This document shows positions 2-40,284 of a DNA stretch of 47,732 nucleotides, one piece after another; position 1 is the stretch's first letter; every line of letters starts with the position of its first letter. Location: positions 1 through 47,732 of the forward strand of contig CAMDSZ010000001.1 of NCBI GenBank assembly GCA_945906945.1. Direction: 5' to 3'. The position numbers were made by a program, and so were the translations under genes. Below the pieces are notes generated by a model, which saw nothing but the letters and a program-made list of their open reading frames with translations, did no database searches and was not told the DNA's origin. Source of the DNA: Akkermansia muciniphila. GTDB lineage: Bacteria; Verrucomicrobiota; Verrucomicrobiia; Chthoniobacterales; Chthoniobacteraceae.

Positions 2-3000
2 ATGACCAACCAGTCCACGATTCTCGCAGTGGGCACCACCTATGGCATTTCAGCCGGGATGCGCCTGATTGGCACCGGGCTGCCTGACCCGGTGGAAGTG
101 AGTGCAGTCTCCAGCGACGGCCGCAGCATCACGCTCACAGGCTCGATCAATGTGGGGACATTGTTTGGGGAATCGGTGTCGACGATTGGAGCGCCTTCGC
201 TGTCAGCGTTCGTTGTGCCAAACAGTGGCTCTGTCACCGCACAGACGGGCTCTTTGGAGGCGTTGCCCGATTACAATCCGAGCGGGGATGACAGCGAAAA
301 CTACGCGATCAAGCCGATACGCCAGGTGTTGCGGATCCGAGCCGACCCTGACAATTCGCTCATTTCTGGAAGCATTGTTTCAGTGGGAACCATTGGATTT
401 AGAAATTACCCGATAACTATGGCAAAGACCCTGATGGCGGGGACTTTTACGGTTGAGGTGCGTGAAAGTTCTCCGGCGGTGCGTGCGAGCGGAATTTCGA
501 ACGACCAAAAATGGTGGGGTGTGCGCGGAGTGCGTCCGGGGATGCGGGTGATAAACAAGAATCTGCCGCCGGGTTGCTATGTTTATTCGGTGGATGATGA
601 TTCGCGGGTGGTGAATGGAACCCTGTCCTACGGGCGCTTCACGGTGGCAATTCCAGTGGTGAATCGCGACGTTCCCAACACGGTTGTTTCAGGTTGGTCG
701 GGCGCAACCTCAGGCACGGTGAACATCACTGCCGGAGGTGGGAATGGATGGAGCGAAGGGATGGACCTCTCAGGTCCCGGAGTGCCTGCTGACACAAAAA
801 TTCAGGCGATCTTTTATCCTGGCACGATCAGCACCATCTTGTTGTCGAAGTCAGCGACTGTCGTGGCTGGAGCAACATTGACCGCATCCGGGCAGGGGTT
901 CACCGGCGATGTAACCAAAGTTTTCTCAGAGGCCAGATATTTGTACTACGCGCTTACTGGCATTGCTCCGTCCGCCGGAAAAATTTCACTCGTTGGCTCT
1001 GGTACGGTTCAGCTCAGCACACCCATCCCGCTGGACGGGCCTTTGGCATTTTTGCCGGATTCACCAACCGACTTGTATTCGGTGGGGATCCTCAACGGTG
1101 GCTATTTCACGTACAACGATTTCAATTATTTAAAACTTGCGATTCCAGCAAACAGCAACGGGACGGTTGACGACTACGGATTCAATTTCATTTTGTCCGG
1201 GGCCAATACTGCTTCGTTTAACGGGGGTACAATCGCCACGACTGCCGTCAGTTTTTCGAAGAAAAATGGTGGCAATAATTTCTACCAGGGCGGGGGAAAC
1301 AATGCCTTCGGCACTGTAGGAAATACGGCGGTTCTCACTGCGATTCCGGCGTTGCCTTTGAGGACCTGCAGTTTTGTCAACGGCTCCAAGATTGTCCGAA
1401 CATGGAGCACCAAGAGTCTGCTGCCGGGGATGTTCGTCCACCACAGGAATCTCCCTGACAGAGCATATGTGAAGCGAATTATCGATGATCAAACATTCGA
1501 AATATCGTCATACACTGGTGGGGCGACTGGTGGCATTCAGAATGATGATGTGGTTATCAATAACACCGTGGTTCCGAGTCGAGTTCTCGGGGTGCGTTCC
1601 TGGGGGTTGGTGACCACTCCGGTGGCTGCTTCTGGAACGGTGAATTTGAAGCTCAACGATGTGAGCGGGTTGAGTTATGGAACAAGGCTCTTGGGTGCAA
1701 ATTTATCTTCCGGCACCGCGGGCGTGGCAGTGATCACCGGTGTGGATAAGTTCAACTCTTCGGTCACAATCAGCAGCGGGAATACATTCGTCGCGGGGGT
1801 CTCTTTGGTCGCGGTACCAGAATTCGTAGGACCCAATAACATTAACACGTGGAACTTGTATAACTCGCCCATCACTCGTGCTGACGGACAGCCTGTGATA
1901 CTCAATGGCACGGCCTCCAGCTTGAACCCCGCGACGACCTTTCAGGCTGATTTAGGCTTTCTGGCCGTGCCCGGAAATCCGGGGCGTCTGCCCAGTGGCG
2001 CTCGGCTGTTTCCGGACGGAATGGTGGTTGTAGGAACCACCGGAGTTTTTCAGAATTTTGGGGCTGGCGTTGTGCCGGTTAGACAGCAGGTGGTGCTTAG
2101 TGGAACGCTTACAGACACTGGTGCGTTCCCTGCGTGGAGTGGCGCGGTCAGCTTTGTTCCGGGAGTGGACTTGGCGGCGGCAGCGACGGTTGAAGGCGGT
2201 TCAATGGTCACCGTGGGAACCCTGCCAACCGAACGGATCGCAGTCGGCATGCGAGTCTTTGGCCCTGGAATTCCGGAACTCGCTCGAGTGCGCTCGGTGT
2301 TGTCGGGGGGCACCGGCTTTACGATCGGCACGGGAACGCTCGACTTGACCTATGCGGGTAGCAGCACCTCAACCGGAAGCCTCACAGGCGGCTCAGTATC
2401 GCTTGGCACCCTTACAACCGCAACGACGGGAACGGTGATGTCGGTTGGTACAGCCGTAGTCATCGTGCCGAATGGAACGCTGGTCGCTGGCAGTCCGAAT
2501 GTTATCTGCGGAACCGTCGCCGGGCTTGCTCCTGGAATGATCCTTACCGGGTCATCCACCAGTGGAAGTGTTTCGCGCATCACCTACGCGGGCAGAGGGT
2601 ATTCACAGATCGCCTCTATTTCAAATGGCACGCTGTTTACCCTCACTGAGAACGCGAACCAGTCCTCCGCAGGGCCAATGAATTTGGTGGCTGCGTATCA
2701 GAGTTTTCCGAAAGAGTATGGAATGTTCATCACCGGCGCCGGTGTGATCGGCAACGGCCAGGTGTCCATTGGCAATCTTTCCGCAGTCAGTGGAAATGCG
2801 TCATCCTGGCGGTCAGGCTTGCAGCGAGGGATGGTGATTCATGCGCCCGGCCTCTCTCCGCTGGGTGCACACATTCTCCAAGTCAACCCAACAGACATCA
2901 TCGTGTCGACTTGGACTGCCGGAACCTATTCTTTGGGTTCTTTCGCAACCTTGTCTTCCGTTGGACCCACTGGAACGCTCTTGACTTCCAGCCCGTCCCT

Positions 3001-6000
3001 CACGGGTACGGGCACGATTACCATGGCAACAGCGACGGGCATTGTCCCGGGCATGGCGGTCACCGGAACGGGCCTCCCTACGGGCCGCTCGGTTTCCTCT
3101 GTATCAGGCACGGTCGTGACGCTTTCGGGCACGGTCAGTGGCGTTGTCTCCGGGGCTACCATTACGTTTAGCAGTTTTTACTCCTTAAATCCTTCGGCTT
3201 TGAACGCCCCGATTTATTTCAGTGCAACTCCATCTCTGGCGGGCGGCACAGGATTCACAAACAACATCTCCGTCGGTACTGCATCAGGGGTTAACGGGTA
3301 TTGGCTCTCAGGCGGCACGGCTTTGGCCAGCTCCAATCAGATCACGGTAACGTCGGCTCCCTCTTACTTGAAGCCGGGAATGACATTGTATCATCCATTC
3401 CTGAACTCTGGGAGCTTGGTGGAGTCGCAGCGAGGATGGGCCCGGGTAGCAGACGTTTCCGGGGGAGTGGTGACCATTGTTGGGAGTCTCGGGAGCGCGG
3501 TCAGCTCCGGCACCTTTGGAATAGCCGGTTACCTGCCGATGATGCTTTCCCCAGGCAGCCTTTCCGTGGACGGTACGCAGCTTACTTTCTCGGGTTCGAG
3601 CAATCTCTCCGCAGGCATGCTAGTGCATGGAGGAACAGTGAACGGGGGCGGCGCTTATGGCAGCATTTCAGGTGGAGGGAGTTTCACGGGATTTATCCCT
3701 GTGGTCCCTCCCGGTACATTCGTCAGGAATGTAAGCACCGACGGCAGAACGGTCACTTTGAACGGCACGTTAAACACCATTGCCGCTGGAAGCTTGGACG
3801 CAGGTAGCCTCATTTTTTCAACCCTGCCGGGTCAGATTATTCCCGCGGTTTCAACGCGTCCACACTCGAAGCGGCTCTTTGTGCAATCTGGTTCGATCGC
3901 GCAGTCCGGGTATCCCCTAACCGCAAGGCTGGCATGGTGGAGGGATAGCAACATCACGTTGGTCACCGCCGAGGCCCTTGCGAACAACAACACTGAGATT
4001 ATTCTCAACATTACAAATCAGCCCAATAATATCCCGTTCCCGAGCATCTCGGAGGGGGCGCCGATTGTCATCACCCCGCCGTTTGTGACCATGAACGCCA
4101 GGGGTAAAGCGGGATCCAATGTTGTTTCGCTTGAAGGCGGGACTAATGCATTAGTCAACATCCGGGCGCAGGGGGAAGATCTCAAAGTGGGTATGCCGAT
4201 TTTTGGTTACGGGGTACAAAGAGGGACCTTCATTGAATTCATCAACGAGTACACCAACCCAGTAACCGTAGAGCTGTCTCAAGCGCTTGGGCTGGACATC
4301 CCGGTGACTGTTTATGATGCCGATGGAAGCGGCGCTGTGGACGCCCTCGACGAGCCGCTTTCGTACGAGACGCTCGTGGTGAACACGTCCATTGTGTCCT
4401 CCATTTTAAATAAGTCCACCGCTTCGCAGACAGAAATCCAAGTCTTCGATAACTCGGGGTATTTCCCAGGAATGCCTCTGGTTAACAGCTTGGGAAATTT
4501 GACGGCCTTAGGCTTGAATGTGATCGCGAAAATTCCGACGGGGGCCAGGGTGGTATCGAAGCGAGACAGCACCTTCCTTACGCTGAACACCCCTCTGGTA
4601 GGGACCACCAACTACACCACCGTCCCGTACGCAGCTTACACAAATGCCACCACTGCGGAAGCCGCCAACGGTGCGGTTGTGTACGCCACAGCTCCCTACA
4701 TACGCCTCAGAGGAAGGAGCGCCACCCGAACTGCAGCTCAGGGTGGTGGTAGCTCGGTCACCACCATTCCCGGTTCCTCGATTGTGGATTTTGATTCGAG
4801 TTTTATTCAAATGGACCCGAGCTGGGCAGGGATGGCAGTTTACGGTGCGGGCATCCCCCCGGGGGCGAACGTCGAGTCCGTGATTGCGAGCAATCAGTTC
4901 ACTCTAAGCCAGCCAGCTGCACCCACGAGCCTTGTGCCGCAGCAGGCCGCTGCGCCGATTATCTTGGATCCCACCCGAGTCGTGGTTTCCCAGTTTTATG
5001 GGGACAAGAGTTCGCTGGCCCAGCTGACTTTGAATGCGGGTGATTCGGTCCTTTCTGCGCTCCAGAAAAACATGATCCTCGACAGCCCGACCCCGAGCTT
5101 TGGAGGCGCGCAAATTGGAAACGGGCTTCCCAACCTCACCTACCTGACGGGCGGCGCGAGCTTGAGTTCGCGCACCGTTGGAATCAGCGGAACACTCACT
5201 TCCGTTTTTTCTGGGATCAACGTGCGTGCGTTCTACGCCCCGATCCCAATCGGTGTTTCTGCCCAGACCTCGGAGAACAGCTTTACTGTCTCGGGGAACC
5301 TTACCGCACTGTACGAGGGAATGGCTCTGCTCGGGGGGAGTATCGCTACTACTTCGAGCTCAAATGTGCGGCTCAGGACAATCGATCAGGGCAATTCTGA
5401 AATTACGTTTGCGCCATTTTTACGTGTGGGAACGATGGAGGCGACGCCTTCATCACACCCCGAATTGTCAGGTATGCTGAGCAGCCCAATTATCACGCCC
5501 GGCCGACTGTGGTTTGTGAATCCGACGACGGTATTGTTTAAATCTGTGGGATTCACGGAGGGAGGCACGATTGCGGTGAGCGGAAGCGTGCCGAGTTTCG
5601 ACGATGTGAATTCAGTGATCCGCGAGCCTATCACCACTAATCTCTATGGCGGCACGAAAATTAAAAGTCTGCTGACGCCTGTCACTAATTTTGAGTTGAG
5701 CATGCCGGCGCGAGCAACCTCGGGTGGGGTTAGATTGCTGGTGAATCTGGCTGGGGACCGTGCGAATCCGGCAGCCTCGGTGTCGGCTGGAAGCCGCAAC
5801 AGGTCATTCATCCAGATTCCTCGAGCTAGCACCACGGCTGGAAGTTCGGTAGTGCAGTTTGCAGCGGCGATTAAGGCGTTGTATTTGGATTCTACAGCCA
5901 ACGGGTACTCGATAGTGGGCCAGCCCATTTACGGTACGGGAATACCAGCGGACGCGTTTGTTCAGTCCGTGGCGATGGACGGGCTTTCGCTCACGCTCAG

Positions 6001-8290
6001 CAAGGCGGCTGAGGCCGATTCGAGTGAGCAGATTATTGTGGTGAATCCCAACTATGTCATTCCTCTTGAGGGTGCGTTTGCCGCTGCGAATTCGCTGGAA
6101 GCCCAAGTGGAATCGATTGGGGCGGGCAGCGCACTGACCCCGGGGCTGTCCATTTCGGGATTGAACCTGTCCAGCGATACAACGTTGATCAGCTTCACAA
6201 ATACTGCGGAAGGGACGAAGTTAAATTTGAGCGGCCGAACCCTTGGGTACCCCTCATCGCAACTGCCCGGTTTGGGAAATTTTGTTGCGACGGTCCCTTT
6301 TGTGACATTGAAAGACGCCGTGGTGACCGCGAATTCAAACACGATCACCGTGGGGGATTACCAAGAGCCCCCCGGATCGGTGAATACATACCCACAGACA
6401 TCAGGTTTGCGGGTGGGAATGACGGTGATGGGGAGTGGATTGCCGTATGGAACCCAGATCACCGGGGTGATTAGCGGGACGTTGACGCTTTCGCAGTCAG
6501 CGACCAGGACGGGTACCTACACTTTGATTGTAAATCCAGAAGTGCTCTCGGCTCCAGGTTTGCAGCTGACGGCGGGCGGATCATTGGTGAGTCTCAGCGG
6601 ATCGGGGCTTGGAGCCGATACACCGCCCGCGGAGATCATTGCAGGAAGTCTTTCCTCAGACCTTGCCGAGCCGTTCGGTCCCTACGGGCTCGCCAACCAG
6701 TGGCAGAAGCTCGCCTCCTGGGGCAGGGCTCTTGGCGCCCCAGCAATTCCTCACGGAACGGTTTTTTTATCACCTTATTTCATTAACTTTGGGTCCCTCG
6801 GTGGGATCCAAGCCAGTGATAGAGCTTCAGTGCTAGCCGGTGGGTATTTTGATTTGACCAGCGCCAATGGAAACGGTGGCGATACACTGGGCGCCGCTTC
6901 CTTTACCATGAACCAGCGTGCCACAGCGTCGACGAGTTTAGCAGACTTTTATCTGACTTACGGAAGAAGCAGGCTAATTCTGACGGGTACAATACTAAGC
7001 GGCTCATCTGCCTTGAGTGTTTCAACGGTGGACGGTCTGCAGCTGGGACTTCAAGTGGACGGGGCGGGGATCCCGAGCGGGACCCGGATCGTTGAAATTG
7101 ATAGCATCAACAATCGATTGGTTTTGTCGGCTTTGGCGACGGCGACGACTAACGGAGCGTTCAGCTTTTCGAAAACTGGCGCTCTTGTCTCATCGGATTC
7201 TGGGGTGTTTTTGAACAATACGGTGGTGAGCAGCTTGGACTCGAGTGCTATTCAGCCGGGACAAACTGTATCTCTGGCAAGCGGCTCGCTGTTGATTATT
7301 CGAAACATAGTAGACCCCGTCAGTGGCGGGAGCGTGGCTGTGCCGAGTTACAACAACACCCCGTTTATGACGAGTCTGTTGGGGAATGCTGGTCCACGGG
7401 TGCGCTCCGTATCGTCAAACGGATCACTTGTGTTTGAAACAAATACAACTCCGGGCTTGGTGCTCACGGCAGGCACCTCCATCAGCAGCAGCACCGTCTC
7501 GACAACGTTCACCGTAGCAAGCAACCTGATGTTCAATATCAATGGGAACGTTTTTGGACCGTACACCATGGTGGCGGGCTCCACTATTGCAACGCGGGCT
7601 GCGGCTAGTTACCTGGCGCTGAGTCAGCCAGCGCAAAAAAGCTCCAAGTCGGTTCGAGTTTTGTTGGATGGAAAGCCTTACGGGCCTGTGGAAGTCATCA
7701 AAGGTTCACAGGCTCTCCTTTGGCGAGGTGCCGATTTTGTAAGGGCAGGCATGCCGGTGAAAGGCCCCGGCATTCTGCAGGGCACCACCATCCTGCAAGT
7801 GAGCCCGCCTCTGAGTAATGGGTCGCTCACGCTTACATTGAGCGCGCCAGCAACAAGTGAGTTGGCGGCGAATAGCAAATTTGATCTGGAGGTTGGCGGT
7901 GGGGTTAACAGCGGAATCGTGGAACTCAATGACTGGCAGTACAAGACCAATACCGAAAACCTGTCTGTGGAGCCCGGCTGGTTGCTATACCGCAGTAACG
8001 ACCCTTGGGCGGCAAACTGGTACCCTGGTTTTGGGAGAGGTGCTGGCGGCAGCAAGTTTGAGTTGGTCGATTATCTGCTTTTAGGGAAGATCACTTGGGT
8101 CGCTGGCAATGGGGTCTTTGGATTTGAGCCGATTCCCGATCCCCGGAACCGGGTGGCGTTCGACTCGCAGAGCCAGTACCTCATGGATCGGCTAAGTTTT
8201 GAAGCGACGACAGACGTGGCGCTCTCTTCCGGACGCCAAGGCTTTATTGACCAGTCGCTATCGGATTTTTACATGCTGGGACAGACCCCC
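2..8290 (+). repeat. N-terminal ~2,760-aa region: roughly 20-24 degenerate copies of a ~45-55-aa 'GM-box' mini-domain separated by variable G/S/T/V-rich spacers (75-215 aa period)
   Basis: Recurrent motif, approximately GS..[IV].[VL]-x(4-10)-[LI]..GM.[VIL].G.G[IL]P.GT.[IV]..[VI]-x(4-8)-[LIV]TLS..A. Clear copies: IVPGMAVTGTGLPTGRSVSSVSGTVVTLSGTV (3041..3136); SWAGMAVYGAGIPPGANVESVIASNQFTLSQPA (4820..4918); LRVGMTVMGSGLPYGTQITGVISGTLTLSQSA (6407..6502); VRAGMPVKGPGILQGTTILQV...LTLTLSAPA (7739..7852). The very first residues are also a copy: GISAGMRLIGTGLPDPVEVSAVSSDGRSITLTG (~41..139). Copy count is by eye. Confidence 0.6.
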
Positions 8291-11200
8291 GACTTCTTTG
8301 TAGAAGCTGGCAATGCCAGGAGTATTAGGTGGTACAAAGACGGGGAACTGCTTAATCAAGCCGCGGGGAGTTCCAGAGTACAGGTGAGGGTGTCTAACTA
8401 CACCGAGGGCTTTAGCCCTTCTGTAGCCAGAACTGCAACTTCTGACTTCTGGCAACGCTCGCAACTCTCGTTGAGTGCTTTGACCCTCAGCAGTCCCGGC
8501 TTTTATTATGCAAACGGGGTTTCTTCCAACGCTGGGTCCTACTCATTGTCGGATTTGATCCAGGTGAGCATTCCAGATCCGCAGCCTCTGATCGTAAAGC
8601 AGCCCGTATCAAAAGTGGTGCAGCGCGCAGGCACCCAAGTGACCCTGGAGGTTGATCTCAAATGCAACAGCAAGGCGCTGCTAGACACACCGAGGGGGCT
8701 AGCGGTTGCGCCAGACGGAGATTTCTACGTGGTGGAGTCGGGAAATAATTCGCTGCGGAAGGCAACGCTAGGGGGCTTTGTCAACACCATGATCGGATCC
8801 AAGAAAGCGATTCTTGACCCGAACGCCGACGGTGTATCGCGTGATTCGATTTGGGGAATGGCGTCTGGCATCGCTGTGAGGGTGGGCAGCCTTATGATTT
8901 CAGATAAGCTTCTGATTCTCCCATCAGGAACAGCCGGACTCACCGCTGGGATGAAAGTGCTCAGCTCCTCAATCAATGATCGGATTCTGCTGAGCAACTC
9001 GGCAGGCATCACCATTAGCGGTTTTGCGGGTGCAAACACGGTGATTCTTTCAGGCGCACCCGCAGGTGATTCTCCCAGCCACTCCATCATTTTCATCCGC
9101 CCCGAGGCTGAACTCCCAGCGAGTACGAACGAGGTAGTCTACCGGAGGGCAATCTCCAGCTACTCTTCCTTCGGTGTCACCTTGCCAAGCGGAGTTCAAA
9201 ACATTGTGCCCGGAATGCTGGTCTGCGGTTACGGAGTGCCTGACTTCACGACGGTGACAGCCGTCGAAGCCAAGAGCAACTCCGTCACCTTGTCGGGGTG
9301 GATAAGGCATGAAGGACTTGAGGCGAACAACCTATTGGTTTTTGTGCGACCACTGAATCAGCCCGAAGCGATCGCAAGTGACGAAGTCGGGGCCCTCTAC
9401 ATCGCAGACACGGGGAACAATCGGATCTTGAGGTTTTACCCCAAAACGGTTCAGGACAAATCAAGAGGATTTGATCCTGCTGTCCCTGCGGGAACAGTCG
9501 AGGTTTTGACTCCGGCGTCGGGGCCGCAGCTCTCTGCGCCTCGTGGGATCACGGTTGTTGGCTACGGGCCGGAGGCAGTCGTTTACGTGGCCAACTCTTC
9601 TCAAAACACTGTGCTGAAAATCGCGCGAAGTGGGGCATCGTGGGTGAGCACAACGCTCGCCGGTAAACCGGGAGTTTCGGGTTACGCAGATGGGGTGGCA
9701 ACGAGCGCGACATTCAATGGGCTACGTGATGTCGCGTACTACAACGAGTCGGTTTACGTCGCGGACTATCTCAATCACACAATTCGGCGGATTTCATTGG
9801 GTCAAACTCCCGAGGTCACGACGGTGGCGGGTGCGCCGGGACAGGCGGGTCTGATCGATGGCAGTGGAAGCGCCGCGAAACTATATTTCCCGGCAGGTTT
9901 GGCGGTGAATAAGGTGGACGGGAGTCTAACCGTCTCGGACTTGGGCAATCATGCGATTCGAAAACTCAACGCCAATGGTTCGTTGGTGACGATAGCAGGG
10001 AAGATCTTCAACGGAATTCCGGCCTTTGGGAAAGAAGACGGACTCGGCACCTCTGCGGGTTTCTGGTACCCCAAAGGCATCGCGATCGACAAGACGGGAG
10101 TGATCCGCATCGCAGACACCTCGAACCATCTGATCCGATCCATTACACCAGATGCAGCGGTTAGCACGGTGGCGGGCGTGGCCAAGTTCCCTTTCTTTAG
10201 AGATAGCGATAAGGATTGGGCAAAGCCTGTTGCCTATGTCCCAACAGAATTCATGGTGCAATGGTATAAGGACGGGGCCAAAATTACAGACGGCATTACG
10301 CCAAACGGCTCCGTGTTCGCTGGAACCAAGACCCGAATCCTCACGATCGACCAAGTCACTGAGCAGGACTCTGGAGCTTACGCGGCTCTTTTTGAGTCTG
10401 TGACTCGCGTCCCCGTTGAGACGAACGTCACCCAAGTGGTGGTTGGTGGAAATTTGGCGCCGGATTACGTCGGAGAATTCACGGTCACACCCGGAACCTT
10501 GGGTGCGATGAAAATGAATTTCCGTGATATTTTGCCTCCAACTCCGAGCGAGGCTTTCGTGCTCAATCAAATTCGGTGGGACGAGACATTCGAATCCGAA
10601 AAACCGTTCTGGTTGGATTTGGTTTCCAGCACGTTGCCGTCAGAACTGGACGGCAAAAAGGTGACGTTGAGCGCCGCCGGCGTCAACCACTCCATGGTCC
10701 TCACGGAGGATGGAAAATTATACGCGTGGGGCGCCAACAGTTACGGTCAGCTGGGGGTGGGGGATCGCAGTGCGCGGTTTACTCCGGTCCCTGTGTATAT
10801 GGGCGGGGTGTTGAGCGGAAAGACGATTACAAAGATCGCACTGGGCGAACATCACAGCTTTGTGCTGGATAAGGACGGGGCGCTCTACAGTTGGGGACGG
10901 AATGATTTTGGTCAGCTTGGGATTGGGTCAGTTTCGGATGCAAAAGTTTACCCAGAAAAGGCACTCTTGACCGGGTGGACAGCGATTGCCAGCGGGTATC
11001 AGCACGCCCTGGCGGTGAACTTCCGTGGGGAGCTGTACACATGGGGCTTGGACCATCACTCCCAGCTTGGACGACTCAACCGTCCGGCCACTCGCACGGT
11101 GACGTTTTCCAACGTTTCCCTCGCGGCCTTAAGCCAGACAGTCGGGCTAGGCAACAGCACTGGCTTGATTGCGGGCAGCACGCTTACCTTTGCGGCAGGT

Positions 11201-14200
11201 TTACTGGACGGTGGTACCGTCCAAGCTGTGGTTAGTTCTGTGATTGGAGAGGGGCAACTCCGCATCGGAACGGCTTCAGCCTCTGCCATCTCTGGGACAA
11301 CGTTTACCGCGTCTGTTTACTGCGACCCGGTTCCCACACAGATCACTGTGTCGAATGTTACGCCATTCGTGCAAAACTCGGTTGAACAGACGGGAAATGT
11401 GATTGCAGGCGGGCGTGCCCACTCACTGGTGGCCACCACCGGTGGCGTGCTGGCATGGGGGGAGAATAATCTTTTTCAAGCTGGCGCACTGAGCTTCGCT
11501 GATGTGGCGACTCCCCAGTTGATTTCGGCTACCAACGGCTTGCAGATTTCGCAGGTCAGCGCCGGACGCGAGCATTCAATGGCGCTTAGTGATGGAGGAA
11601 CGTTGTTGGCGTGGGGTCGGAACGATAGCCGCCAGCTAGGTGCTGATCTGCATCCGCGAGTGGTGAGCGGTTCCGCTTCGGTTGCGGCTGGAGGCACCCT
11701 TACTGGGAGCGGTACCAGTTCGGTAATTCAGCTGGCAAGCGTCGATGGAATCACCCGAGGGATGTCATTTACGGGTGCTAATTTGACTGGGACAACGCCC
11801 AAGGTGAGAGAAGTGTTGTCGGGCCAGGGAGTCATGCTGTCAGGAGGGAGCGTAACATTGGCCGAGGGAGGCACGATGCTGAGTTTCCAGCGAATCACCG
11901 CAGGAACAGTTCATGGAACGGAGTACAGGATGACTGCGTATCCGATTTCCACTGAGGCATCTAATGTGGTCCGTGTAAGCAGCACTGCGGCGCTTGGCGC
12001 CTCGTCCAGAAGCAACAGGGTGGATCCCGCGTGGGCTGGAACGGTTTCGAGGACATTGACGATGGTGAGCACAGGTTCATGGGCTCCGGGAATGGCGGTG
12101 TACGGTACAGGCGTCCCTTCGGGAACGCGGATTGTTTCCGTGGACGACAGTAGCAACCAGGTAACACTGTCTGGTTCGGTAACGGTGAGTCCGAGCACGG
12201 TGTTGGACGCTCGCGGTTCGAGTCTTGGGAACGAACTTCTGGCGGGGCCGATGAAAGTGACGGGTTTCAGCGCGACCGGGCAGTCTTTCTCCAGCACCCT
12301 GAGGTTGGAACGGATTGTTGAGGGCCCGGCTGTTGTGCTGTCGGGGAACGCAAGTTTTGTCAGTGGAGGCTCGGCCGCATTAAGCGCCCGGTACGGGAAT
12401 CTCGCGCTCTCGGGGACGGTTGCGTTCACCGGCAGCTTGGTGGCGGGGACCACTCAGGTCGTCGTGGCTGGAACCTCCGGGCTGGAAATCGGGATGGAGC
12501 TAAGCGCCAGTGGAAGCCTTGCAGCCGGGACCACCATTCAGGAGATTGTGACTGGCAAACTAAAGCTGTCCTCTGCTCCGCTCATCTCTGGGGCATCCGT
12601 CCCGATGATCGCAACCCGTGTTGCTTCCAGCAGCCCGGTGGCGGTGAATTTGTCCGAGCTGCGACTGCCCGAGGCTGTATCCTCCGTGACGCGGCGTGTC
12701 ACCGATATTAGCAGCGGTGCACAGTTTAACTTTATCAAGACCTCGGACGGCCTGTTCTGGGCCTGGGGGTTGAACTCGGATGGGCAGTTGGGGGATGGCA
12801 CGTTCAACGACAAATCCATACCCACTGCATTCTTGTCACCGGCCGAAGAGACGTTTGCATGGATTGCTCCGGGTGGAAATCATGCATTGGCCACGACCAC
12901 CGGGGGGGGATTGTTCTCCTGGGGAGGCAATCAGTCGGGTCAGCGGGGTGATGGGACGACGAATACGGTGGCCGACCCTCAAAGACATAAGGGCATCACC
13001 GAATACTTTTTGCAGGCTCAGAGTATTCCCGATTCAGAAGGCCAGCAGCAGGTGCGCGCACGGGTAATTTTAAATGACTCCCAGAAAGTAGAAACGCTGG
13101 TAGTCGTGAAGCCGTCGGCCGCGAACTATGTGAGTCCAAATGCGCCGGTGATTACAAAACAGCCCGCATCGGTGATGGTAGCTGCGGGTGCGACTGCGAC
13201 TTTGACGGTGGAGGCGCGCTCTGAGCTGCCCCTGCAGTACCAGTGGATGTTGAACGGGGTGGATGTAGCCTTGGGCGGGAACAGCCCAAACTACGCGTTG
13301 ACCGATTCGCCGCGGACTCCGATCGCAGGGTTGTATTCAGTGAAGGTGAGTGACGAGCGGGGAAGCATCGTGTCCAAAACCGTGCAGGTTGCGGTGGTGA
13401 ACAGCCCGAGCGTGTTTGCGGAACCGGAGGCCCAAGTGATCCTTCCAAAAACGTCTACATCGATTCAGGTGCTGATGCAGTCTCAGTTCAAAACCTTGTT
13501 TAATTCTCCTCACGGACTTGTGGTTCGAGGAAACGGTGACCTCCTGGTTGCCGACCGCGATAACAGTGTCGTGCGCGTGATGAATGACGGGGGGTTTGTT
13601 GAGACATTGGTAGGGATTCCACAGCAAAGCGGCTGGGTTGATTCGGTGGGCAACCTTTCTCGGTTGTCCAGGCCCGAAGGGTTGACTGTATTGAACATCG
13701 GTGAATTTGAACTGGTGTTCATTACGGATCCGGGGTCGCACACAGTGCGTTGCCTCACTTGGGAGTTTGATAAATCTGTTGGCGATTTCGTGTACCGTTT
13801 GAGAACAGTCGCAGGTTTGCCAATGCAAGCTGGGTTTGTGGATGGCGATATGAAGGAAGCGAAGTTTAATTCGCCAATGGGAGTCGCTGGGTTTGTTTCC
13901 CAGAGGAAAGATACTTCGACGCAATTGCCGCTGCCCGATCAGTATGAGGTCTACCTGTATGTTGCGGACCTGAATAACCATGCATTGAGACTTGTGCTGC
14001 TGCCCGTGACTGTGAGTGAGGACGCGTTGGCCGCAGACCCAAGGAGCAAGCGGACCCTGCAAATCGCACCGAGCATGGTGGCAAGTGTCGCAGGTGCTAC
14101 TCCAATCACTCCAGGGCCGGGCAGCAACGACTCCGCTGCATCGGGACAGCCCGCGCAGTTCTTACTACCCTCAGATGTGGCTGTCCAAGCTGGGTCCAGC

Positions 14201-17200
14201 CATGCGGTGTACGTGGTGGATTCTGGAAATCACAGCATTCGGCGGGTTGAGGCGGATGCGCCCACCTCGCAGCGACTGGCCCAGGGAGTGATTGTTGGAA
14301 CCTACAAGGGGACTGGATCCACCTACATCACGTGGGGTTCTTCTCGCCGGCCCGACTGGGTCAGGCCTGGGATGAAAGTTTCCGCATCCGGATTTTTTAA
14401 GGATGAAACGTATGTGAGTCGGGTGGACGATGGCGGTGTCTTTGTGAGCCAACCCGCGCTTATTCAGGGGGTGACATCCGTGCAATTCACGGATACTCTC
14501 GTAAACTCAATTTTCACCACTTACACGTATGCCGGAACTCCGGGAATCTCAGGGGCGCAGGACGGAGCGGGGGTGCAGGCGCGGTTTTGGTTCCCGCAGA
14601 AAGTCGCGATATCTGGGGATGGTTCATTGTTTGTGTCAGATACAAACAATTGCCTAATTCGTAAGATTGCGCCCTCTTTAGATCCGAGGTCTGGGATTGT
14701 GCGGGTTTTTGCCGGGGTTGTGGGCAAGAGCGGATCTGTTGACGGGCCGGCCTCGATGGCCCAGTTCAGTGCGCCAAAGGGTGTTGCGGTTTCCGACGAC
14801 GGGTCGGTTTATATTTCCGATGACGGGTCGCATCTTATTCGGAAAATCTACGATTATTACGGGGATCGGATGGTGGCAACGCTCGGAGGGCTAGCCAAGT
14901 CTCCCGGCCACATGGATAGCGACCTTGTTTCTGAGTACATCTATCAGTGGAAGAAAAACGGAGCTCCCCTCGGTGCTGCGATTCGAGGCGAAGCAGGCCG
15001 TACGCTCACTTTGAGCGGCGACGCTGCTGATTCGGGAGTTTATGTCGTGGAGGTCACATCTGCGGCACTCTCGAGCTTTAAGTTCACCTCTCAACCGGCA
15101 CAGATCACGGTTCCGGCTTCGAGCGCACCGGTGGCATTCGTAAAGTCGATCACGGTTAGGGCGGGGAATACCTATCAACTGGGCGTCAACGACGTATTCA
15201 AGACGTACTTCCCAAAGCTTGACTGCAAACAATTCATATTTGAGCAGGTTGATTCGAGGCGGCAGACATTGCCGGAGTGGATACAGATTCCAGCTCAACT
15301 AGCCGGCCCAGATCAGGCAGTTGTATCCATCACTCCGAAGGCGGACGCAACCACCCAGTCCCTCGTGATCAGTGTTCTTGCTGATTTGGACGATGGAACA
15401 ACCAAGCTGGGTTATCTCCAATTCAATGTTCAAGGCGTTCGAGTGGATCAAGACTATAGGCCAATCATTGTCCAGCAGCCCACGTCATGGAACTCTACTG
15501 ATAGCGCCCTAATGAGTGACAGACTGGCGGTGAAGGTGATGTCTGGGGATGAATTCTCCACCAGTTATCAGTGGTACCAGAGACAGAAGCCGAGCGCCTC
15601 TTATCTCAGTTACTCAGGCGGTTCGCAGGTCAGTGTGAATTCGCTGTTGAGATCTAGGCAGGCTGCGACAACTGGGAGTCTTGCCCTCTCAATTCCGGTG
15701 TCTGGGGGAACGGGAAGTTCGTTATCATTGCCTCCACCCCTGACGGCGGGAATTTACGCGCTTAAGGTTACAAATAAAAAAGTGCTCTCAAGTTCGACGA
15801 ATACCGTCTTCACGCAGCAAGTCGTGTATAACACGTCAGGGAATTCAGCGGCAGCGACCGGTTCTTTTTCGACGGTCACGAATCAATCACTTGCTTCTGA
15901 CGGTTCTTCGGTCGAAACGGATCTCGTTCAGGTGGTGGTTTCCGGCCCGCCTCAGGTGGTGCAGCAGCCGTTCTCTTACCTTCAGTCGGAGGGCGACCGT
16001 GTGATTCTCAGGGTTTATCCGAAGACTTCCGCGAAATCCTTGATGAACGAACCGCGTGGAATTGCTTACAACAGCAGTGACCAATCCTTGTTATCGGTGG
16101 AGCGCGGCAATTACGCGGTTCGTTCCGTTTCTCTGGGCGGGGAAGTCGCCGACTTCGCCGGTTCGCGTTCGGATTGGGGCGGCGACGACTCCCGACTCTC
16201 GAGGGAAGCCCGATTTGGCAGAACTGACGGAGGCCCCGAGGGGTTGACCGTTGATACTTCGGGGACGGTGTATGTTGCTGATACCATGAATCATGTGGTT
16301 CGCATGATTTATGGGGGCACCGTTAGCACAATTGCGGGTGTCACAGGGTTCGCGGGTTCAACCAACGGTTCTGGCCAATCTGCACGATTCAACATGCCTT
16401 CCGGAATCGCCAGCAGGAACACAGTTGATACGAGCGGTTCGGAAGTTGTGATTCTTTATGTCGCGGACTCAGGCAACCATCTGGTTCGGAAGATTATGGT
16501 TTTGAACAAGGGCAAGACAAATCAGACTATTTCGGTTACGACGCTAGCTGGCGGAGCAGGAATTTCAGGCTATGTGAATGGCGACGGTTCCAGCGCAAGA
16601 TTCTCCGAACCGTTTGATGTGGCTTATTCAAACAACAAAGTGTTCGTGGCAGATTTTCAAAACCACGCAGTACGCTGTATTACCGATCACAACGACGGGA
16701 ATCCCGCAAATGTGACGGTTATCACGCTCGCAGGGGGTGCTCTGGTGGGAGGAACCGAGGTTTTTGGATTGGACATTCCGAATAACCCTGATTCCCCGCT
16801 TTCGGGATTGGACGCAGGATTGAAGGCGAAGTTTTTACATCCCACGGGCGTAGCCTCGGACGGTCAATTTGTCTACGTGGCAGACTGGGGTAATCATGTT
16901 GTCAAACGGGTATCTTTCCCGAGTCCGGGAGCCCAGCAGCAGTCGCTCAGAGTCGAAGTGATCGCAGGTGAGTCAGGTGTTCCAGGTGAATCAGGCGACG
17001 GTCCAGTCAAAGCAAAGGATGCTCGCTTCAAGGAGCCGACAAAAGTCGCCGTGGATCCTTTAGGGAATGTTTATGTTTCTGACTCTTGGAATCACGTGAT
17101 CAGAAAGATTGGCTTAGACCAAGTGATGACCACGGTTGCGGGTGTCGAGGGGCTTCCTGGTGATTTGAACAGCGACTTGCCAGTGGAATTTTATTATCAG

Positions 17201-20200
17201 TGGTATAAGGGCAATCGGCCAATCACGGGCGGAAGCGGAAATGCATCCTCCTATGAAATTAAGTCTCTCAGCTCCGCTTCGGAAGGAGACTACACAGTGT
17301 TGATTTCGAACGATGCCAGAATGAGTGCGTCCTTGATGAGTGCTTCTGCCTCGGTAAAAATGGCTACGCCCACGAGCATGAAGCTGGTGGACGTCATTGC
17401 GGGTCAAACCAGTATCATTGGGAAGAGTGTGATTCGATCAGGTTCTTTGGCCGTGGATCAGCTGCCGACATGGGCCCGGGTGGATAGTCTGGGGAATTTG
17501 GTTCTGTCGCCAAGCGTAATGGAGCCTGTCGGTCTTGTCTCTGGCACCTACGGCGGGGATCCACTGTTTGTAAATGTGGTGTCAAAGAAGCAGGGTATGC
17601 TCTCGCCAAGAATTCTCACCGAACCGATTGATATTCTGACCGGCGTCGGCCAGGACCTGAATTTGCGAGCAAAAGTCCAGCTACCGGGGGCTGCGGCAAC
17701 TGCTGTGGCAACACTTTCAGCTCAAAATGTCAAATGGTACAGGCTTGGTGCGGCTGGGGCGCTCGTGTCTTGCGGCACGCTAGGGGACGCCACTGGGGCT
17801 CGCTCTTCGTTACTGCCCGATGTTCTCCCTGAAACGTACGAGGTGAATTTAAGTTGCCCGCGCGTGCAGGCCGGTCAGGCCGGATTTTATCGCCTTGAAG
17901 TTACGCCGATCCAAGGCGGCGCTCCATTGATCTCGAATTGGATTCAAATCGTGCTTCAGGCTTCTCCATCTTTCGTTGAGCAGCCTGAACCCGAAAAGTT
18001 TTTTGTCGTGGGAGGGTCACTTTCAATATCGGCCGAAGTGCGGACGCCGGCGAAATCGCTGTTCCAGCGTCCGGTGGGTCTGGCGTCTTTGCCAAACACG
18101 TCGCGACTGATCATCGCGGACGAAGAAGATCGAACTGTCCGGATATCCTCCTCGGGAGGCCGAGTCTCTAACTGGTTAGGTGCATCGGGGATCAGCGGTT
18201 TTGCGTCAGGTTCGGGTGAAAATACACGCTTGGGCTCTGTTGAGGCAATAGCTTATGACCCCGGCATCGTGCTGAACTTGAGAAGTGCAAGGCTTACGGC
18301 AGGGTCCGCCTGGATTAAGGTAAAGGAGATCGAAGGCATACACCTAGGAATGACAGTCTCCGGGACTCTGGCGATCCCTGCCGGCGCGCAAATTGAGGAA
18401 ATCGGAGCGGCGGAAGGCTTTTTCCGAAACATCAAGTTGAGCACGACCGCGACTCAGACCCACGCCGAAGTCGATCTGGTTGCCACTAGGGCGAGCGCGA
18501 CTTATTTGGCGGACTCCGTCAACCACGTCATTTGTAAGGTGTCTATGGCCGGCGAAATGAGGGTACTCTGCGGTAGTTTGGGGGTTGCGGGCGACGGAGG
18601 GCTTTACTGTTCTTTGGATAACGCAAAGTTTAATGCACCTCAAGGAGTGGCGGTCGATCCATTGGATGGAACGGTTTATGTTTCCGATACGGGTAACCAC
18701 GCCATCCGGATGATTCAACAAGGGGTGCCAAGGGTGTATTTGGTCGCCGGGGGAACCTTTGGGGATACGCTGGCGTTGCCCTCTTACAGCTTCAAAGATG
18801 TGTCTCGCGAGGAGCTTGGAAACGGGTTTTCCACGTTCAGTCCGTTGGACGTGAAGTTTTATCAGCCCCTAGGGATTGCGGCACGCACTCGTCTTTTGAC
18901 TTCTTTGGATTTCCCGTTGGGTCGATATGTAACTGAGGTTTTTGTGGCTGACCGGATGAACCATGTGGTTCGGGTAATTCGATTAAACGCGCGGAAGCCC
19001 GACAACAGCTTTGCCGTGTTAAATTGGAGCGGTCTGTCTACCGATAAATCCGCTTATTTCAAAGAAGGCCTGTATGACAAAGTTCTCGGTGTGCTTACCT
19101 GGGCGGGTCAGCCCGGAATTAGCGGCGCGAAGGATGGAGCCGGTGATAGCGCTAAGTTTAATTTGCCTTACGGGTTGGCTCTCGACTTCGGCAACGAAGT
19201 GGATGGAAGTCTCTATGTTGCGGATCAAGGCAACCACGCGCTGCGGCGCATCGCTACAGAATTTGATGCACAAACCCTGGTTTTTAAGGATCAGGGGACT
19301 GTAGAAACCGTTGCGGGCATCTTAGGCGTGCCTGGCGCTGCAGATGGTTCTGTGGTCACTGATCCCGTTACGCAGGTTCAAACTGCGATTCCTTCGCGGT
19401 TGTCGTGGCCCACTGGTGTCGCTGTGAACTCGAGAACTGGAGAGGTTTTTGTGTCTGACACAGGGAATTTCTCCATCAGGGTTTTGAGGGACGGTGTTTT
19501 GCAAGCTTTTGTTGGTGAGCTGGGAGCAAAGGGATCCTTTAATAGCGCCGAAGTTTTGGATGGGTTCACTTACCAATGGTACAAAGATGGAAGCCCGATC
19601 GCAGTAAAGGGCTCCGGATTGCAAGGTGTCAATTCGGACACGCTCAGCAATTCGCCGATGGCTTTCAGTGATATAGGCGCATACCAACTGGAAGTCCGCG
19701 GGGCGACTACTCTGCGGAGCGCGGTCAGTTTGCTGCGCGCCGAGACTCCCATGCGATTCATTGAGAGTCCCTTGTCGTACGTTCAAAACAATACGTTGAC
19801 CAACAAGGGCGGTGTTTGGAACAATGATCGAGGGTTCGAGGTGGATCCTTACGGGACCGTCCGTCTTACAGCTACAGTATACGGGGCGGGAAACCTTGGC
19901 TATCAATGGAGCAAAAATGGCATGCCGTTGTCAGACGGAGCAAACCTTTCTGGTGCCGTACTCGGCGGGGTATTGTCTCCGAGTGTCACTTTGGGAAGAG
20001 GCGGATGGAAGAAAATTGACAGTGCAGTGGCTGGCCCGCGGCACTCTGCAGCAATCAGTGCGGGGACGCTTTACATGTGGGGAGCGAACGACGCTGGGCA
20101 ACTGGGGCTTGGGGATCGAGTGCCTAGATCGCTGCCGCAGGCTCTGCCTGCAAGTGCATTTGGTGGAAATCAGGTGAAGGAAGTCGCTCTTGGGCAGAGT

Positions 20201-23200
20201 CATACGCTTGTGCGAACAGCGGATGGGGCAATTTATGCGTGGGGTAGTAACGCTCAGGGCCAGCTCGGCAAGCCGTCCGGCGACAATATTCTTCAACCGT
20301 CCAATGTGGACATCGGGACCAAAAAGATCAGGGCGATTGCTGCCGGTTCCAACCATTGTTTGGCGGTCATTGACAAGTCCAGCGCAGGCGCAAACACGGT
20401 CCTAAGCTGGGGCGGGGGGCCTGATACGCCGGCTCAACTTGGCCGCAAAATCGCCGCCGGCAAATTTGTTGTTGCCTCGGGAGCCTATTCGGGCGAACTC
20501 ACCGGTGAAATTTGGTCAGATGCCGCCCTCGCCCAAGCGGTTTTTAGCATGACTGTAAATACAGACTCTGGGGTTTTCTCTGTGCCGCCGCGCATCTTAT
20601 CCGCTGCTCCAGCATCAGGCGCTTCGGCTACCAATCTGGTTCTAGATCAAAAAGCGCAACGTTCTGGGGTTTTTGCCGTCACTATCTCACACCCAGCATG
20701 GAAGCCTTCGCCGGTGATTTGCACTGTCAACGGCCAACTGCGATTGCTGAAGGCCTTTGATTTTTCAACCGAATCCGCTTTGCTTACGAAGTTGAAGAGC
20801 GACGGAAAAAAGCTGGGACTCGAAGCGGTCTCCTGCGTGTCAACCGGATTGGCGCATTCCTTGGTTCTAGGGGACGACTTGAACGTCTACGGGTTTGGCT
20901 CCAATGCGAAAGGCCAAGCGGGGCAGGTGGACACAGTTCAAATGCAAGAGGTCGCGTTGGCGATGCCGATTGAGACAGCAAATATCCGCGGTGAATTATT
21001 TAGATCGGTCGCAGCAGGGGATGTGCATTCCATAGCTTTGACTTCCAAAGGGGTGCTTGTGTCGTGGGGTGATAACAGTTCCAAGCAACTTGGACGATCG
21101 GTGATCAAGTCGGTTGAATCGAGCTTGGTAAGCACCAACACGTTGGTGGTTTCAGGAACGAGTATGCTGAAAGTGAATTCAATGGCGGCGTACTTTGAAC
21201 AGAATGTGGGAGGTGGAAAATGGGATGCTCGTTCAGGATGGTCCGGCAAATATGACTTGGGATTGAACATTTGGCCGCAGGTTTTCTCTCCAGCCTCAGC
21301 GAGAATCTCTGTGATAAATGCTAGTCGGGTTGTCAGGCTCGATGGGTTCTTCTCCCTGCCAGTCCCCACTATGCAGGGCCAACCGATTGAGGTGGTTTTT
21401 GCGGACATAACCAATTTCTCGGGGATGCCGAGAAAAGCCTTCTATGTAGAATCCGACCCAAAACAGTTAAGTTCCATTGCCTCGGGAGGCAGTTCAAACA
21501 TTGCGATCGGAGCGGATAGTAATGTCTATGTCTGGGGACGCAATGGGGGCCAGTTGGGGATTGAATGGCGAGATATCTCGGAATTGGCAGCCCCGCAGCC
21601 ATTGGAATTCTTCTCCTCGGTGCTGTGTAAAAACTCGCGGGCTGTGCGAGTATCCGTGGGCGGGCATGGCCATGACACCGGCCATGCCTTTGCGGTGGAT
21701 TCTCAGGGTATGCTTTTTGTGTGGGGCGACAACACAGCCGGACAACTCGGTGATGGATTGTTGGCGGAGCGGAGAGTGCCGAACTACAATGCGTTTTCAG
21801 ACTTTGGCAATTACACGCTGAAAGTGCGTTCAAGCGTGGATGGTCAACAAGACGAATCCGAGGGAGTGTTTCTCGTGCAGCCCGAGGTGGAGGCTTCGCG
21901 ATTCGGTGAGTGGCCAAGAGCACTTTTAAGCCCCGAGCTTCAGGTGAGCTACAAGGGGTCTGTAGCGATTAACATCCCTGGGCCAATGGGCTACCCTAAA
22001 CCCGATGTACAATGGGTCGATGGAGGGACGCGAAGCTTCGGAAATTCCTACGTGGTAAACAACGTCGAAAGTCTAAGGCAGGTATCGGTGACACTTGGGC
22101 AGCGTGACGGCTCCGGAAACTTTATTCCGCTGCCTAATCCGGATCTCTTGAGCCGATGGTCTTTTAATAACCCAGCTGAACCAGCAAGACTCACGGGAAG
22201 TTTTGATTACGCTTTTGAGTATCAACTCGGGAGTCAAACTGGGTTGACTTCCGGGTCTACGTACCAAACCACTCATGCAGCGGCGACGAGCGCCGCGCTG
22301 GCACTCCGCCCAAGTGACTCTAGTACGAGCAACTTGATCGTCGTGCCGTCTGTAAACCCGAATTATGAGCCGCTGGAGAGTTTCAGGGATGCTATGCTTA
22401 AGCAGAGGAGCTTACGCGACCAAGACTCCGGCAATTTCAGCGTGCGGACAGATGCTGGGCCTGCGGGCACTGCATCCTTCGTTGATTTGAGCGAATTGGA
22501 CCCGAGTGATGCGACGAAGGTGATTGCTGGGTCCGGAACAATCAAATTCAGTTCTGGTGCTCTGGCCGTTGGCGCGCTGAAAAGCGGCTCTCTAACGACA
22601 TTGACACCTGATGCCACGCGGGCTGCCAGCTACGTCTCCCTCCCCATGAGCTTGACTGGCGAGGAGATTGCAAGAGACGGTCTGACCGTAGAGGTTTGGG
22701 CAGCGCTCAATAACGCGACGGCATTCCCAACGATCTTTAGTTTGGACACTCCCAATAAAGCGGGCGCGGAACTTTGGGCGGGCTATTATTATGCCAAAAC
22801 TGACACGAGTCGCCCAGCTCTGTCCTCCTCGCTGGCTGATGCGGCAACGGCGACCGCCACGACTGCGATGCCGCTGGTACTTGGCAAAATCTATCATTGG
22901 GCTTTAGTTGTCAGTCCTGCAGCTGCCAAGGCGACGCTGTATCGAGACGGGGTGGAGGTGTGTTCCGTCCCAGTGAGTTTGGCAGATGTGGGAGCTCTTC
23001 AATTTGGAGAGCTGTGCTTGGGCAAATCTTTGACAAATGACGATCCACATTCCTCTGCTACGTATCTTGAGGCGCGCGTGTGGCGCCGGACCTTGAGCGC
23101 GGCTGAAATCAAACAGAACAGCGATTTGAAAGAAGATGCTGACTTCAGTTACAGCCGAAATTTCAAGGTCGTTCCAAGTGGATTCCGTCTACTGGTACCG

Positions 23201-25609: not shown

Positions 25610-25813
25610 CCCGCTCGCTTGCGTTTGGCGCGAACCATTCCCAGTTCAATTTAGTTTCGTTGTGTGCAGACGCTTGCGTTACCTTTCGTTTGGTGACTCT
25701 CTTCAACCAAACTCTCACGAGCCGAATGATGTCTTTTCTACTTCGGAGGGCGGGTTAAAGTTGAGAGAACGGCACTCCAGCGAACCTGATAAAATTTTGT
25801 TTGCCTCCCCCGC

Positions 25814-28870: not shown

Positions 28871-28908
28871 TCTTTCCCCCGTCTCCCTCCACTTTACCCC
28901 CAACGGAT

Positions 28909-30357: not shown

Positions 30358-30407
30358 GCACGCGCACGCGATTCCAAGAAGCGCCGTAAAATTTAAATTC
30401 CACTCTC

Positions 30408-31322: not shown

Positions 31323-31341
31323 TCCAACTCTTGCCAATTGA

Positions 31342-32553: not shown

Positions 32554-32579
32554 GCCTAGGAGGCTGAGGCCTTGCTGCG

Positions 32580-33041
32580 CTACTTCGCGTGGCGTCTTTT
32601 GTAATGCTGCACTTCGAATTCAGCGTGGGATTCGATGACTTCGCTCAGCTCAAAATCCGTCTCGAATGCAGGAAACAGAGCGTCGCCCGACGGCTCAAGG
32701 TTGACCATGCTCAGGTAGAGGTCCGAGCAGAACGGAAGTGTTTGCGCATACAGATCGCTGCCGCCGATGATCCACACCTCTCGGTCGCCAAATGAAATTG
32801 CAAGCAGCTCCTCGATGCTGCGGACCATTCGCACGCCGGAGATCTCAGTCGAACGCGACAGCACCACATTCTCGCGGCCAGGAAGTGGTTTGCCGAGGCT
32901 CTCGTAAGTTTTCCGACCCATGACAATCACGCCTCCCATTGTGGCACGCTTGAACCAGCGAAAGTCCTCTGGAAGGTGCCACGGGATCGCTCCGTGTGCG
33001 CCAATGACACGGTTCCTGGCCATTGCTGCGATTGCCTTCAT
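32580..33041 (-). CDS. folA: Dihydrofolate reductase, 153 aa
   Basis: MKAIAAMARNRVIGAHGAIPWHLPEDFRWFKRATMGGVIVMGRKTYESLGKPLPGRENVVLSR...VWIIGGSDLY. The start was moved to the ATG at 33041 (track ORF extends to 33107), which lies 20 nt downstream of the thyA stop. Confidence 0.9.
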   Translation of the reverse strand: MKAIAAMARNRVIGAHGAIPWHLPEDFRWFKRATMGGVIVMGRKTYESLGKPLPGRENVVLSRSTEISGVRMVRSIEELLAISFGDREVWIIGGSDLYAQTLPFCSDLYLSMVNLEPSGDALFPAFETDFELSEVIESHAEFEVQHYKRRHAK

Positions 33042-33061
33042 GTTTGCGTGTACGCCGCAGT

Positions 33062-40272: not shown

Positions 40273-40284
40273 ATCATTTTCTAA

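Follow-up and report, generated by a model that had tools for sequence, protein, structure and literature searches.

In the integrin beta chain, a beta-I domain is inserted in an immunoglobulin (Ig)-like hybrid domain, which is itself inserted in a PSI domain. In prolyl oligopeptidase, a whole propeller lies between the N-terminal segment and the C-terminal bulk of the hydrolase domain. The bacterial proteins RrgA and GBS104 have non-contiguous IgG-like domains, D1 and D2, with a vWA domain between the halves (PMC7893114). The present analysis concerns a stretch of 47,732 nucleotides, here called the window, which comprises positions 1 to 47,732 of contig CAMDSZ010000001.1 (assembly GCA_945906945.1), listed as Akkermansia muciniphila with a GTDB lineage in the Chthoniobacteraceae (Verrucomicrobiota). 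It contains a giant gene encoding Ig-like domains and NHL beta-propellers. Very probably, four of these Ig-like sandwiches, of the I-set/Ig_3 type, each carry a complete six-bladed NHL propeller in the B-C loop. The chain would leave the Ig-like domain after strand B, build the whole propeller, and return to form strands C to G. This nesting was first proposed from the letters and translations of the DNA (the sequence-only reading), and it is supported by profile alignments, by AlphaFold2 (AF2) models and by two orthologues.

Split Ig-like domains and their propellers

The region of interest, 8579..19750, lies wholly within a single open reading frame (ORF) on the plus strand, 2..25609, which encodes 8,535 amino acids (aa) and is free of stops over 8,535 codons. 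The four units (U1 to U4) occupy aa 2860-3483, 4467-5040, 5316-5790 and 5988-6583, and an uninterrupted Ig-like domain at aa 4381-4466 serves as the reference copy. As the boundaries were set, the segment before each propeller (the N-half, strands A-B) has 28-30 aa and the segment after it (the C-half, strands C-G) has 63-69 aa; the inserts between them measure 525, 481, 384 and 503 aa in U1 to U4. The sequence-only reading had placed the four units and the intact Ig correctly within this frame, and the peptides it quoted are all present.

All of these features are on the plus strand. The U1 N-half lies at 8579..8668 (aa 2860-2889), where it gives a spliced profile match and is 90% identical in the orthologue L001 described below; the propeller follows at 8669..10243 (aa 2890-3414), recognized by Pfam NHL/TEN_NHL and by alignment with NHL homologues, with two small domains inserted in blade 2, and the C-half at 10244..10450 (aa 3415-3483) matches Pfam I-set/Ig_3. 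The intact reference domain at 13142..13399 (aa 4381-4466) matches the full profiles of Pfam Ig_3/Ig_2, and the U2 N-half begins directly after it at 13400..13486 (aa 4467-4495), with a spliced profile match and a match to a hidden Markov model (HMM) of foreign Igs. The U2 propeller (13487..14929, aa 4496-4976; Pfam and NHL alignment) has one small domain in blade 4 and is followed by a C-half at 14930..15121 (aa 4977-5040; Pfam Ig_3). U3 consists of an N-half (15947..16030, aa 5316-5343; Ig_3 when spliced, and AF2), a propeller that contains no further insert (16031..17182, aa 5344-5727; AF2 and Foldseek) and a C-half (17183..17371, aa 5728-5790; Pfam Ig_3 and AF2). In U4 the N-half at 17963..18049 (aa 5988-6016) adds 11.7 bits to the Ig_3 score, the propeller at 18050..19558 (aa 6017-6519; Pfam and NHL alignment) has one small domain in blade 2 and other loop extensions, and the C-half is at 19559..19750 (aa 6520-6583; Pfam Ig_3).

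In the native sequence, Pfam finds only partial Ig matches after each propeller. When the propeller was removed in silico, and the N-half joined to the C-half and scored against Pfam Ig_3 (PF13927, 78 positions), all four spliced Igs aligned to the profile in one stretch, while the C-halves alone are limited to positions 32-78 (E = 5e-5 to 0.017). Spliced U1 covers positions 2-72 of 78 (E = 6e-8), U2 positions 2-77 (E = 8e-5), U3 positions 1-78 (E = 2e-6) and U4 positions 2-76 (E = 1e-6), with scores that rise over those of the C-half alone from 24.1 to 33.4 bits, from 16.1 to 23.5, from 18.6 to 28.7 and from 17.6 to 29.3, respectively. For U1, the spliced score is above the Pfam cut-offs of both Ig_3 (33.4 vs 30) and I-set (PF07679; 37.9 vs 23.7). 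The Ig-profile alignment that the sequence-only reading had called for was thus made with spliced flanks: these cover the full profile, and the C-half by itself only the second half.

The hallmark residues of the Ig fold are present in the units. The strand C tryptophan is found in all four (VQWYKDG, YQWKKNG, YQWYKGN and YQWYKDG), at the expected positions of the C-strand motif (aa 3417, 4979, 5730 and 6522), and tyrosine-corner motifs precede strand F (DSGAY, DSGVY, EGDY and DIGAY in U1 to U4). The cysteines of the B-F disulfide are absent, as they are in the aligned foreign bacterial Igs. Each N-half stands directly after the G-strand of the Ig-like domain before it, and the junction is of the kind usual between Igs, for example VQVAVV/NSPSVF, VQVVVSG/PPQVVQQP and IQIVLQA/SPSFVEQP. 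In a tandem array the next Ig begins at exactly this point, which favours nesting. By the profile matches, both host segments are homologous to parts of one intact domain and the insert is a complete, autonomous domain, the pattern of a domain insertion.

A control model that owes nothing to the window was an HMM built from 14 foreign intact Ig domains, against which random 28-30-aa segments of the giant protein and shuffled N-halves were scored in 300 trials each. The natural N-halves of U1 to U4 add 13.0, 5.3, 7.6 and 2.2 bits. Their scores were reached by 0, 5, 2 and 28 of 300 random segments, and by 0, 6, 0 and 18 of 300 shuffled N-halves. In this narrow model the N-half signal is clear for U1-U3 and weak for U4.

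The inserts themselves are firmly assigned. Pfam recognizes them as NHL (PF01436; E = 1e-24 and 3e-57) and TEN_NHL (PF25021; E = 3e-12 and 2e-23), and in an alignment with 18 foreign NHL propellers six NHL repeats are in register in all four units. In the AF2 models of U3, residues 36 to 400 form six blades with 24 strands in all, and the predicted local distance difference test (pLDDT) score is mostly above 90 in each of two runs. A Foldseek search of the PDB with U3 returned only NHL propellers (teneurins, as well as SOQ1, NHLRC2, TRIM71 and Pizza6 with E = 1e-20 to 1e-12). The TM-score was up to 0.80 when normalized to the target and at most 0.61 when normalized to the query, so that only the propeller is matched and the composite has no counterpart among solved structures.

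When six in-phase repeats close into a ring, the first and the last come to lie next to each other, so that the propeller could be accommodated in a loop while the host fold stays intact. The B-C loop is the equivalent of complementarity-determining region 1 (CDR1), at the N-terminal end of the sandwich, and tolerates variable length. The backbone would run from Ig to Ig, with strand A as the way in and strand G as the way out, much as in a plain rod of tandem Igs, and the propellers would hang sideways as binding heads rather than in line.

The arrangement is conserved. Among 185,579 species genomes, the only close relative is L001 (JBILUQ010000010.1), from a Chthoniobacteraceae metagenome-assembled genome (Verrucomicrobiota), with an open frame of 5,291 aa that is 74% identical to the giant protein over 4,891 aa and has all four units with the same junctions. 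Identity to the window is 65-90% in the N-halves, 71-83% in the propellers and 73-87% in the C-halves. By the method of Nei and Gojobori, the nonsynonymous and synonymous divergences (dN/dS) between the window and L001 are 0.147/0.728 (about 0.2) in the pooled N-halves, 0.25/1.9 in the C-halves and 0.108/1.34 in the U1 propeller. A ratio of about 0.2, together with conservation like that of the propellers, indicates that the N-halves are constrained by purifying selection as a folded part and not as a linker. A second orthologue, P0148, is a JGI metagenome protein of 4,395 aa with the source name 'alpha-tubulin suppressor-like RCC1 family protein'; it is 59% identical over window aa 4165-8535 and retains U2-U4. 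A metagenome scan gave no close orthologue.

Origin of the units and alternative explanations

The sequence-only reading held that the composite was invented once and then amplified, and that its entry and exit junctions are conserved. In the 8,535 aa, the entry motif K[AST]L[LFM].[TSEQR]P.G[LI] is found four times and no more (aa 2891, 4497, 5345 and 6018), and the exit motifs are present as well. On alignment with the 18 foreign propellers, these junctions prove to be largely ordinary NHL repeat consensus, A-R-F-x-x-P-x-G-[IV]-A at the entry and G-x-x-G-x-x-D-G at the exit, cut in the same phase. Departures from this consensus that are specific to the units are few: K-x-L-[LFM] in place of A-R-F at the entry, and [ND]-S-[DA] in place of D-G-x-G at the exit.

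Of the alternatives, the one that survives best accepts that the nesting is real and holds that the units arose by independent insertions, or by replacement of the propeller, at a structurally favoured loop, and not by duplication of the composite. Over 314 propeller columns, identity is 32-38% between the propellers of the four units and 36-45% between these and foreign propellers, and the foreign ones are 54% identical among themselves. Since the units are no closer to each other than to foreign propellers, sequence distance cannot show duplication of the whole composite, and a neighbour-joining distance tree, in which the units stand on long basal branches, is uninformative. That the junction motifs are mostly NHL consensus also fits independent insertions, as does an RCC1 propeller in the E-F loop of another Ig of the same protein (described below), which implies that insertion has happened more than once. 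Against this explanation, the host loop and the repeat phase are identical in four of four units, the departures at entry and exit are shared, and nested units were found in this one protein family only, among the NHL loci and profile matches searched. Independent insertion is considered rather unlikely. A single origin of the nested units is probable, favoured by the same host loop, the same phase and the shared departures from consensus. The proposal of one invention followed by amplification is thus plausible: it draws support from the insertion point, the phase and a few residues, and none from the propeller distances or the tree.

A second alternative questions the split domain itself. 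The two flanks would not form one domain: the N-half would be a linker or hairpin packed against either the preceding Ig or the propeller, and the C-half an incomplete relic of an Ig that the propeller disrupted. In its favour, spliced U2, U3 and U4 fall just under the Ig_3 gathering score (23.5, 28.7 and 29.3 vs 30). It also counts against a split domain that the U4 N-half is not significant by itself with the foreign-Ig HMM, though it gains 11.7 bits with Pfam Ig_3. MAFFT places the intact Igs across the split for some input sets only: with the units, 14 Igs and 16 NHL propellers, the Ig A-B strands were shredded over the propeller columns and that alignment was discarded, and in trials the split alignment was kept only with at most one NHL row in the set. 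As the placement depends on the input, it is not counted as evidence.

Structure prediction bears on the same point. In a first AF2 run, U3 was aligned with the other units and the 18 NHL propellers, without intact Igs. The mean pLDDT was 84.8, the predicted TM-score (pTM) 0.83 and the C-half scored 66-88, but the N-half remained at pLDDT 36/55/65 with one short strand. In a second run, the alignment, which was checked by column, contained U3, the other units, the intact Ig of the window, nine intact Igs of foreign proteins and a single NHL row. The mean pLDDT was then 86.0 and the pTM 0.84, the C-half scored 72-96, and the N-half reached 83/93/77 with four strands, at residues 3-6, 11-13, 19-22 and 24-26. 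The confident N-half in this model leans on the very homology that is being assessed, and the pairing of strands A-B with C-G is deduced from profiles, pLDDT and strand positions rather than read from coordinates or from the predicted aligned error. An N-half of 28 residues would not reach such a pLDDT unless it were packed into a domain, and the second run is counted as support rather than proof. The structure prediction suggested in the sequence-only reading therefore yields a confident propeller. In the presence of Ig homologues it also yields strands where a sandwich of sheets A-B-E(-D) and C-C'-F-G would have them, and it leaves the N-half at low confidence when these homologues are omitted.

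The view that the flanks belong to separate structures must also contend with N-halves that align to Ig_3 positions 1-30 and add 7-12 bits, that are as conserved as the propellers, and that are predicted as four strands when Ig homologues are supplied. Moreover, a five-strand C-G half-sandwich would leave a hydrophobic core exposed. It is therefore regarded as improbable, and one Ig-like sandwich split by a propeller remains the preferred explanation. An assembly chimera or a frameshift that joins unrelated pieces can be dismissed, as the frame is unbroken over 8,535 codons and the same architecture recurs in two independent assemblies, those of L001 and P0148.

Further nesting and the host protein

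The differences in size among the units arise because a small domain (SD) of about 60 aa is inserted into the propellers, a point missed by the sequence-only reading. Its consensus is ..GS..l.v....gl..GM.V.G.GiP.GT.I..V.....lTLS, and 27 copies were found with a self-built, iterated HMM. Twenty of these, in tandem, make up the N-terminal 2,625 aa (window 2-7876), a part without a Pfam or NCBIfam match. The SD in blade 2 of the U1 propeller is at 9149..9334 (aa 3050-3111; E = 4e-19), and a degenerate second copy, with a weak match (E = 0.014), lies at about 8909-9043 (aa 2970-3014). The same HMM locates the SD in blade 4 of U2 at 14300-14485 (aa 4767-4828) and that in blade 2 of U4 at 18290-18475 (aa 6097-6158), as well as a free copy at 23525-23704 (aa 7842-7901); all are on the plus strand. 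The SD gave no match in Pfam or NCBIfam. The PDB profile search gave only an E of about 1, to the F1-ATPase beta subunit in its N-terminal barrel, which is not significant.

Two RCC1 propellers are present in the same protein. Between the blades of the first (window ~10630-13020, aa ~3545-4340) lie three clear SD copies, at 11696-11875, 12038-12211 and 12434-12601 on the plus strand by the self-built HMM, and a further copy that is degenerate. Nesting of this propeller is unsupported: when its flanks (aa 3484-3548 and 4327-4380) were spliced, no Pfam domain was obtained. The second is probably nested and would make a fifth unit, 19751..21901 on the plus strand, in which an Ig-like domain (aa 6584-6664 and 7263-7300) holds the RCC1 propeller (aa 6665-7262, matched by Pfam RCC1) in its E-F loop. 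The spliced flanks match I-set positions 15-84 of 90 (E = 9e-4); without splicing, Ig_2 is matched at positions 12-55 (E = 0.035). A canonical F-strand motif, FSDFGNYTLKV, follows this propeller, and the arrangement is conserved in P0148.

The protein may thus belong to a three-level 'Russian doll' family, in which hairpins of the NHL and RCC1 propellers carry the small domain, Ig loops in turn carry the propellers (B-C for NHL, E-F for RCC1), and the Igs form the continuous backbone. This wider scheme is tentative, with the chances a little short of even. If it is true, the protein would be an undescribed branched rod with side-mounted binding heads, and the SD a new small domain family without a relative in Pfam, NCBIfam or the PDB.

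The giant ORF (2..25609, plus strand; 8,535 aa) holds all of the units, and its orthologues are L001 (74% identity) and P0148 (59% identity). It opens with an ATG at window base 2, and the protein may really begin upstream of the window, together with any signal peptide. The segments after U2 (15122-15499) and U3 (17372-17650) share an 'LPxW.q.p/LPTWARVD...G.L.LSP' motif and by eye resemble putative-Ig or cadherin-like (He_PIG-type) domains, for which Pfam gave no match. The C-terminal part contains a Laminin_G_3 (ConA-like lectin) domain, an intact Ig and a weak PDZ-like match (22628-23113, 23237-23449 and 24194-24415), while the last ~400 aa gave no match. Neither an anchor nor a sorting signal was recognized. 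Domain scans detected no enzymatic domain.

Most likely, this protein, which has at least 8,535 aa and comes from a Chthoniobacterales-like member of Verrucomicrobiota, is an extracellular, multivalent binding or adhesion protein. It counts against this assignment that no signal peptide or anchor was identified to back the localization and function.

Downstream of the giant gene are ordinary chromosomal genes: PSCyt1/PSCyt2/PSD1 and DUF1501 pairs, DinB, a MiaB-like enzyme, FabF, a sulfite/nitrite reductase and ProRS. PSCyt1-PSCyt2-PSD1 proteins are encoded at 25814-30357 and 44524-47211, the first followed by a DUF1501 protein. Such PSCyt/DUF1501 pairs are a hallmark of Planctomycetota and Verrucomicrobiota, which supports an origin of the window in the Planctomycetota-Verrucomicrobiota-Chlamydiota (PVC) group. 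The G+C content is 0.51-0.53 in the 3' part of the giant gene (22001-26000) and 0.58-0.59 in the neighbouring genes (26001-46000).

Should the nesting be physical, these units would be a natural, repeated and conserved case of a propeller of about 400 aa grafted into the CDR1-equivalent loop of an Ig, and hence a design precedent for loop-grafted binders. They would also allow parsers of discontinuous domains to be tested on predicted structures, and give a clue to the organization of giant PVC surface proteins as a linear Ig backbone with lateral heads. There would be a warning for annotation as well: standard scans report half an Ig after the propeller and miss the 29-aa N-half, and so wrongly divide these proteins into NHL and a truncated Ig. 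The significance is moderate: the units are of interest as a curiosity of structure, as a pitfall for annotation and as a precedent for design, and no new biological mechanism is opened.

Rarity and comparison with known systems

Split Igs were not found among the 120 nearest protein homologues of U3, nor in 79 other genome loci and 80 metagenome loci with NHL; in all of these, every Ig that adjoins an NHL propeller is intact. A profile search of 1.84 billion representatives was dominated by multi-blade NHL giants, and its sole informative match was P0148. In the best 150 of the 136,268 profile matches, with 164 full-length Ig matches in 41 proteins, the Igs adjoining NHL were intact and a split was seen in P0148 only. 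In all, this comparison took in about 430 other NHL proteins and loci. One further candidate, P0243, was rejected when its partial match turned out to come from a whole Ig whose B-C loop is long; it does show that this loop tolerates variation in length. A protein search with the spliced U3 Ig gave no matches, as too few words are shared, and even a consensus-like foreign Ig gave only 15. The search for other proteins with the same split, as proposed in the sequence-only reading, thus finds it in the orthologues L001 and P0148 only. The sampling is biased to many-bladed proteins, and rarity is therefore indicated but not established.

The closest proteins in domain content are tandem NHL-Ig proteins of Verrucomicrobiota and others (P0009, P0015, P0069, P0181 and P0254), one of which bears the source name 'MYXO-CTERM domain-containing protein'. 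They are apparently surface proteins made of the same two domain families, with Igs of the same 'xPxIxxQPxSxxV...YQWxxNG...DxGxYxV' type. In contrast to the units of the window, their Ig is intact, follows the propeller or propellers and is not split; P0009, P0015 and P0069 have two propellers and then a whole Ig. In structure, the best matches to the U3 propeller are NHLRC2 and SOQ1 (PDB 6gc1 and 7djl; E = 1e-20), which also have a beta-sandwich adjoining NHL, but their domains are in series: Trx-like, NHL and C-terminal domain.

Among proteins with inserted domains, integrin beta shares the multi-level nesting and an Ig-like sandwich with a large globular binding domain in a loop, whereas it is eukaryotic, its insert is of the vWA type and occurs once per chain, and another host loop is used. 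Prolyl oligopeptidase also has a propeller as the insert; its host is an alpha/beta-hydrolase and not an Ig, and its propeller is seven-bladed, unrelated to NHL, and gates the active site. The likeness to RrgA and GBS104, the pilus tip adhesins of Streptococcus, is that these too are bacterial surface proteins in which a ligand-binding head is displayed from a split Ig stalk (PMC7893114). They differ in that the insert is a vWA domain and not a beta-propeller, the host folds are of the CnaA/CnaB type (IgG-rev, DEv-IgG) and not I-set-like, there is one nest per protein as against four or five here, and there is no sequence relationship.

A search of the literature and the PDB found nothing specific on a propeller nested in an Ig-like domain, and no PDB chain spans both domains. 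The suggestion that the arrangement is undescribed therefore stands for this pair of folds, as far as that search reached, while the principle of domain insertion was already established by RrgA and GBS104. The four propeller-split Igs of the window are a real and conserved example of that known principle, apparently undescribed for this fold pair.

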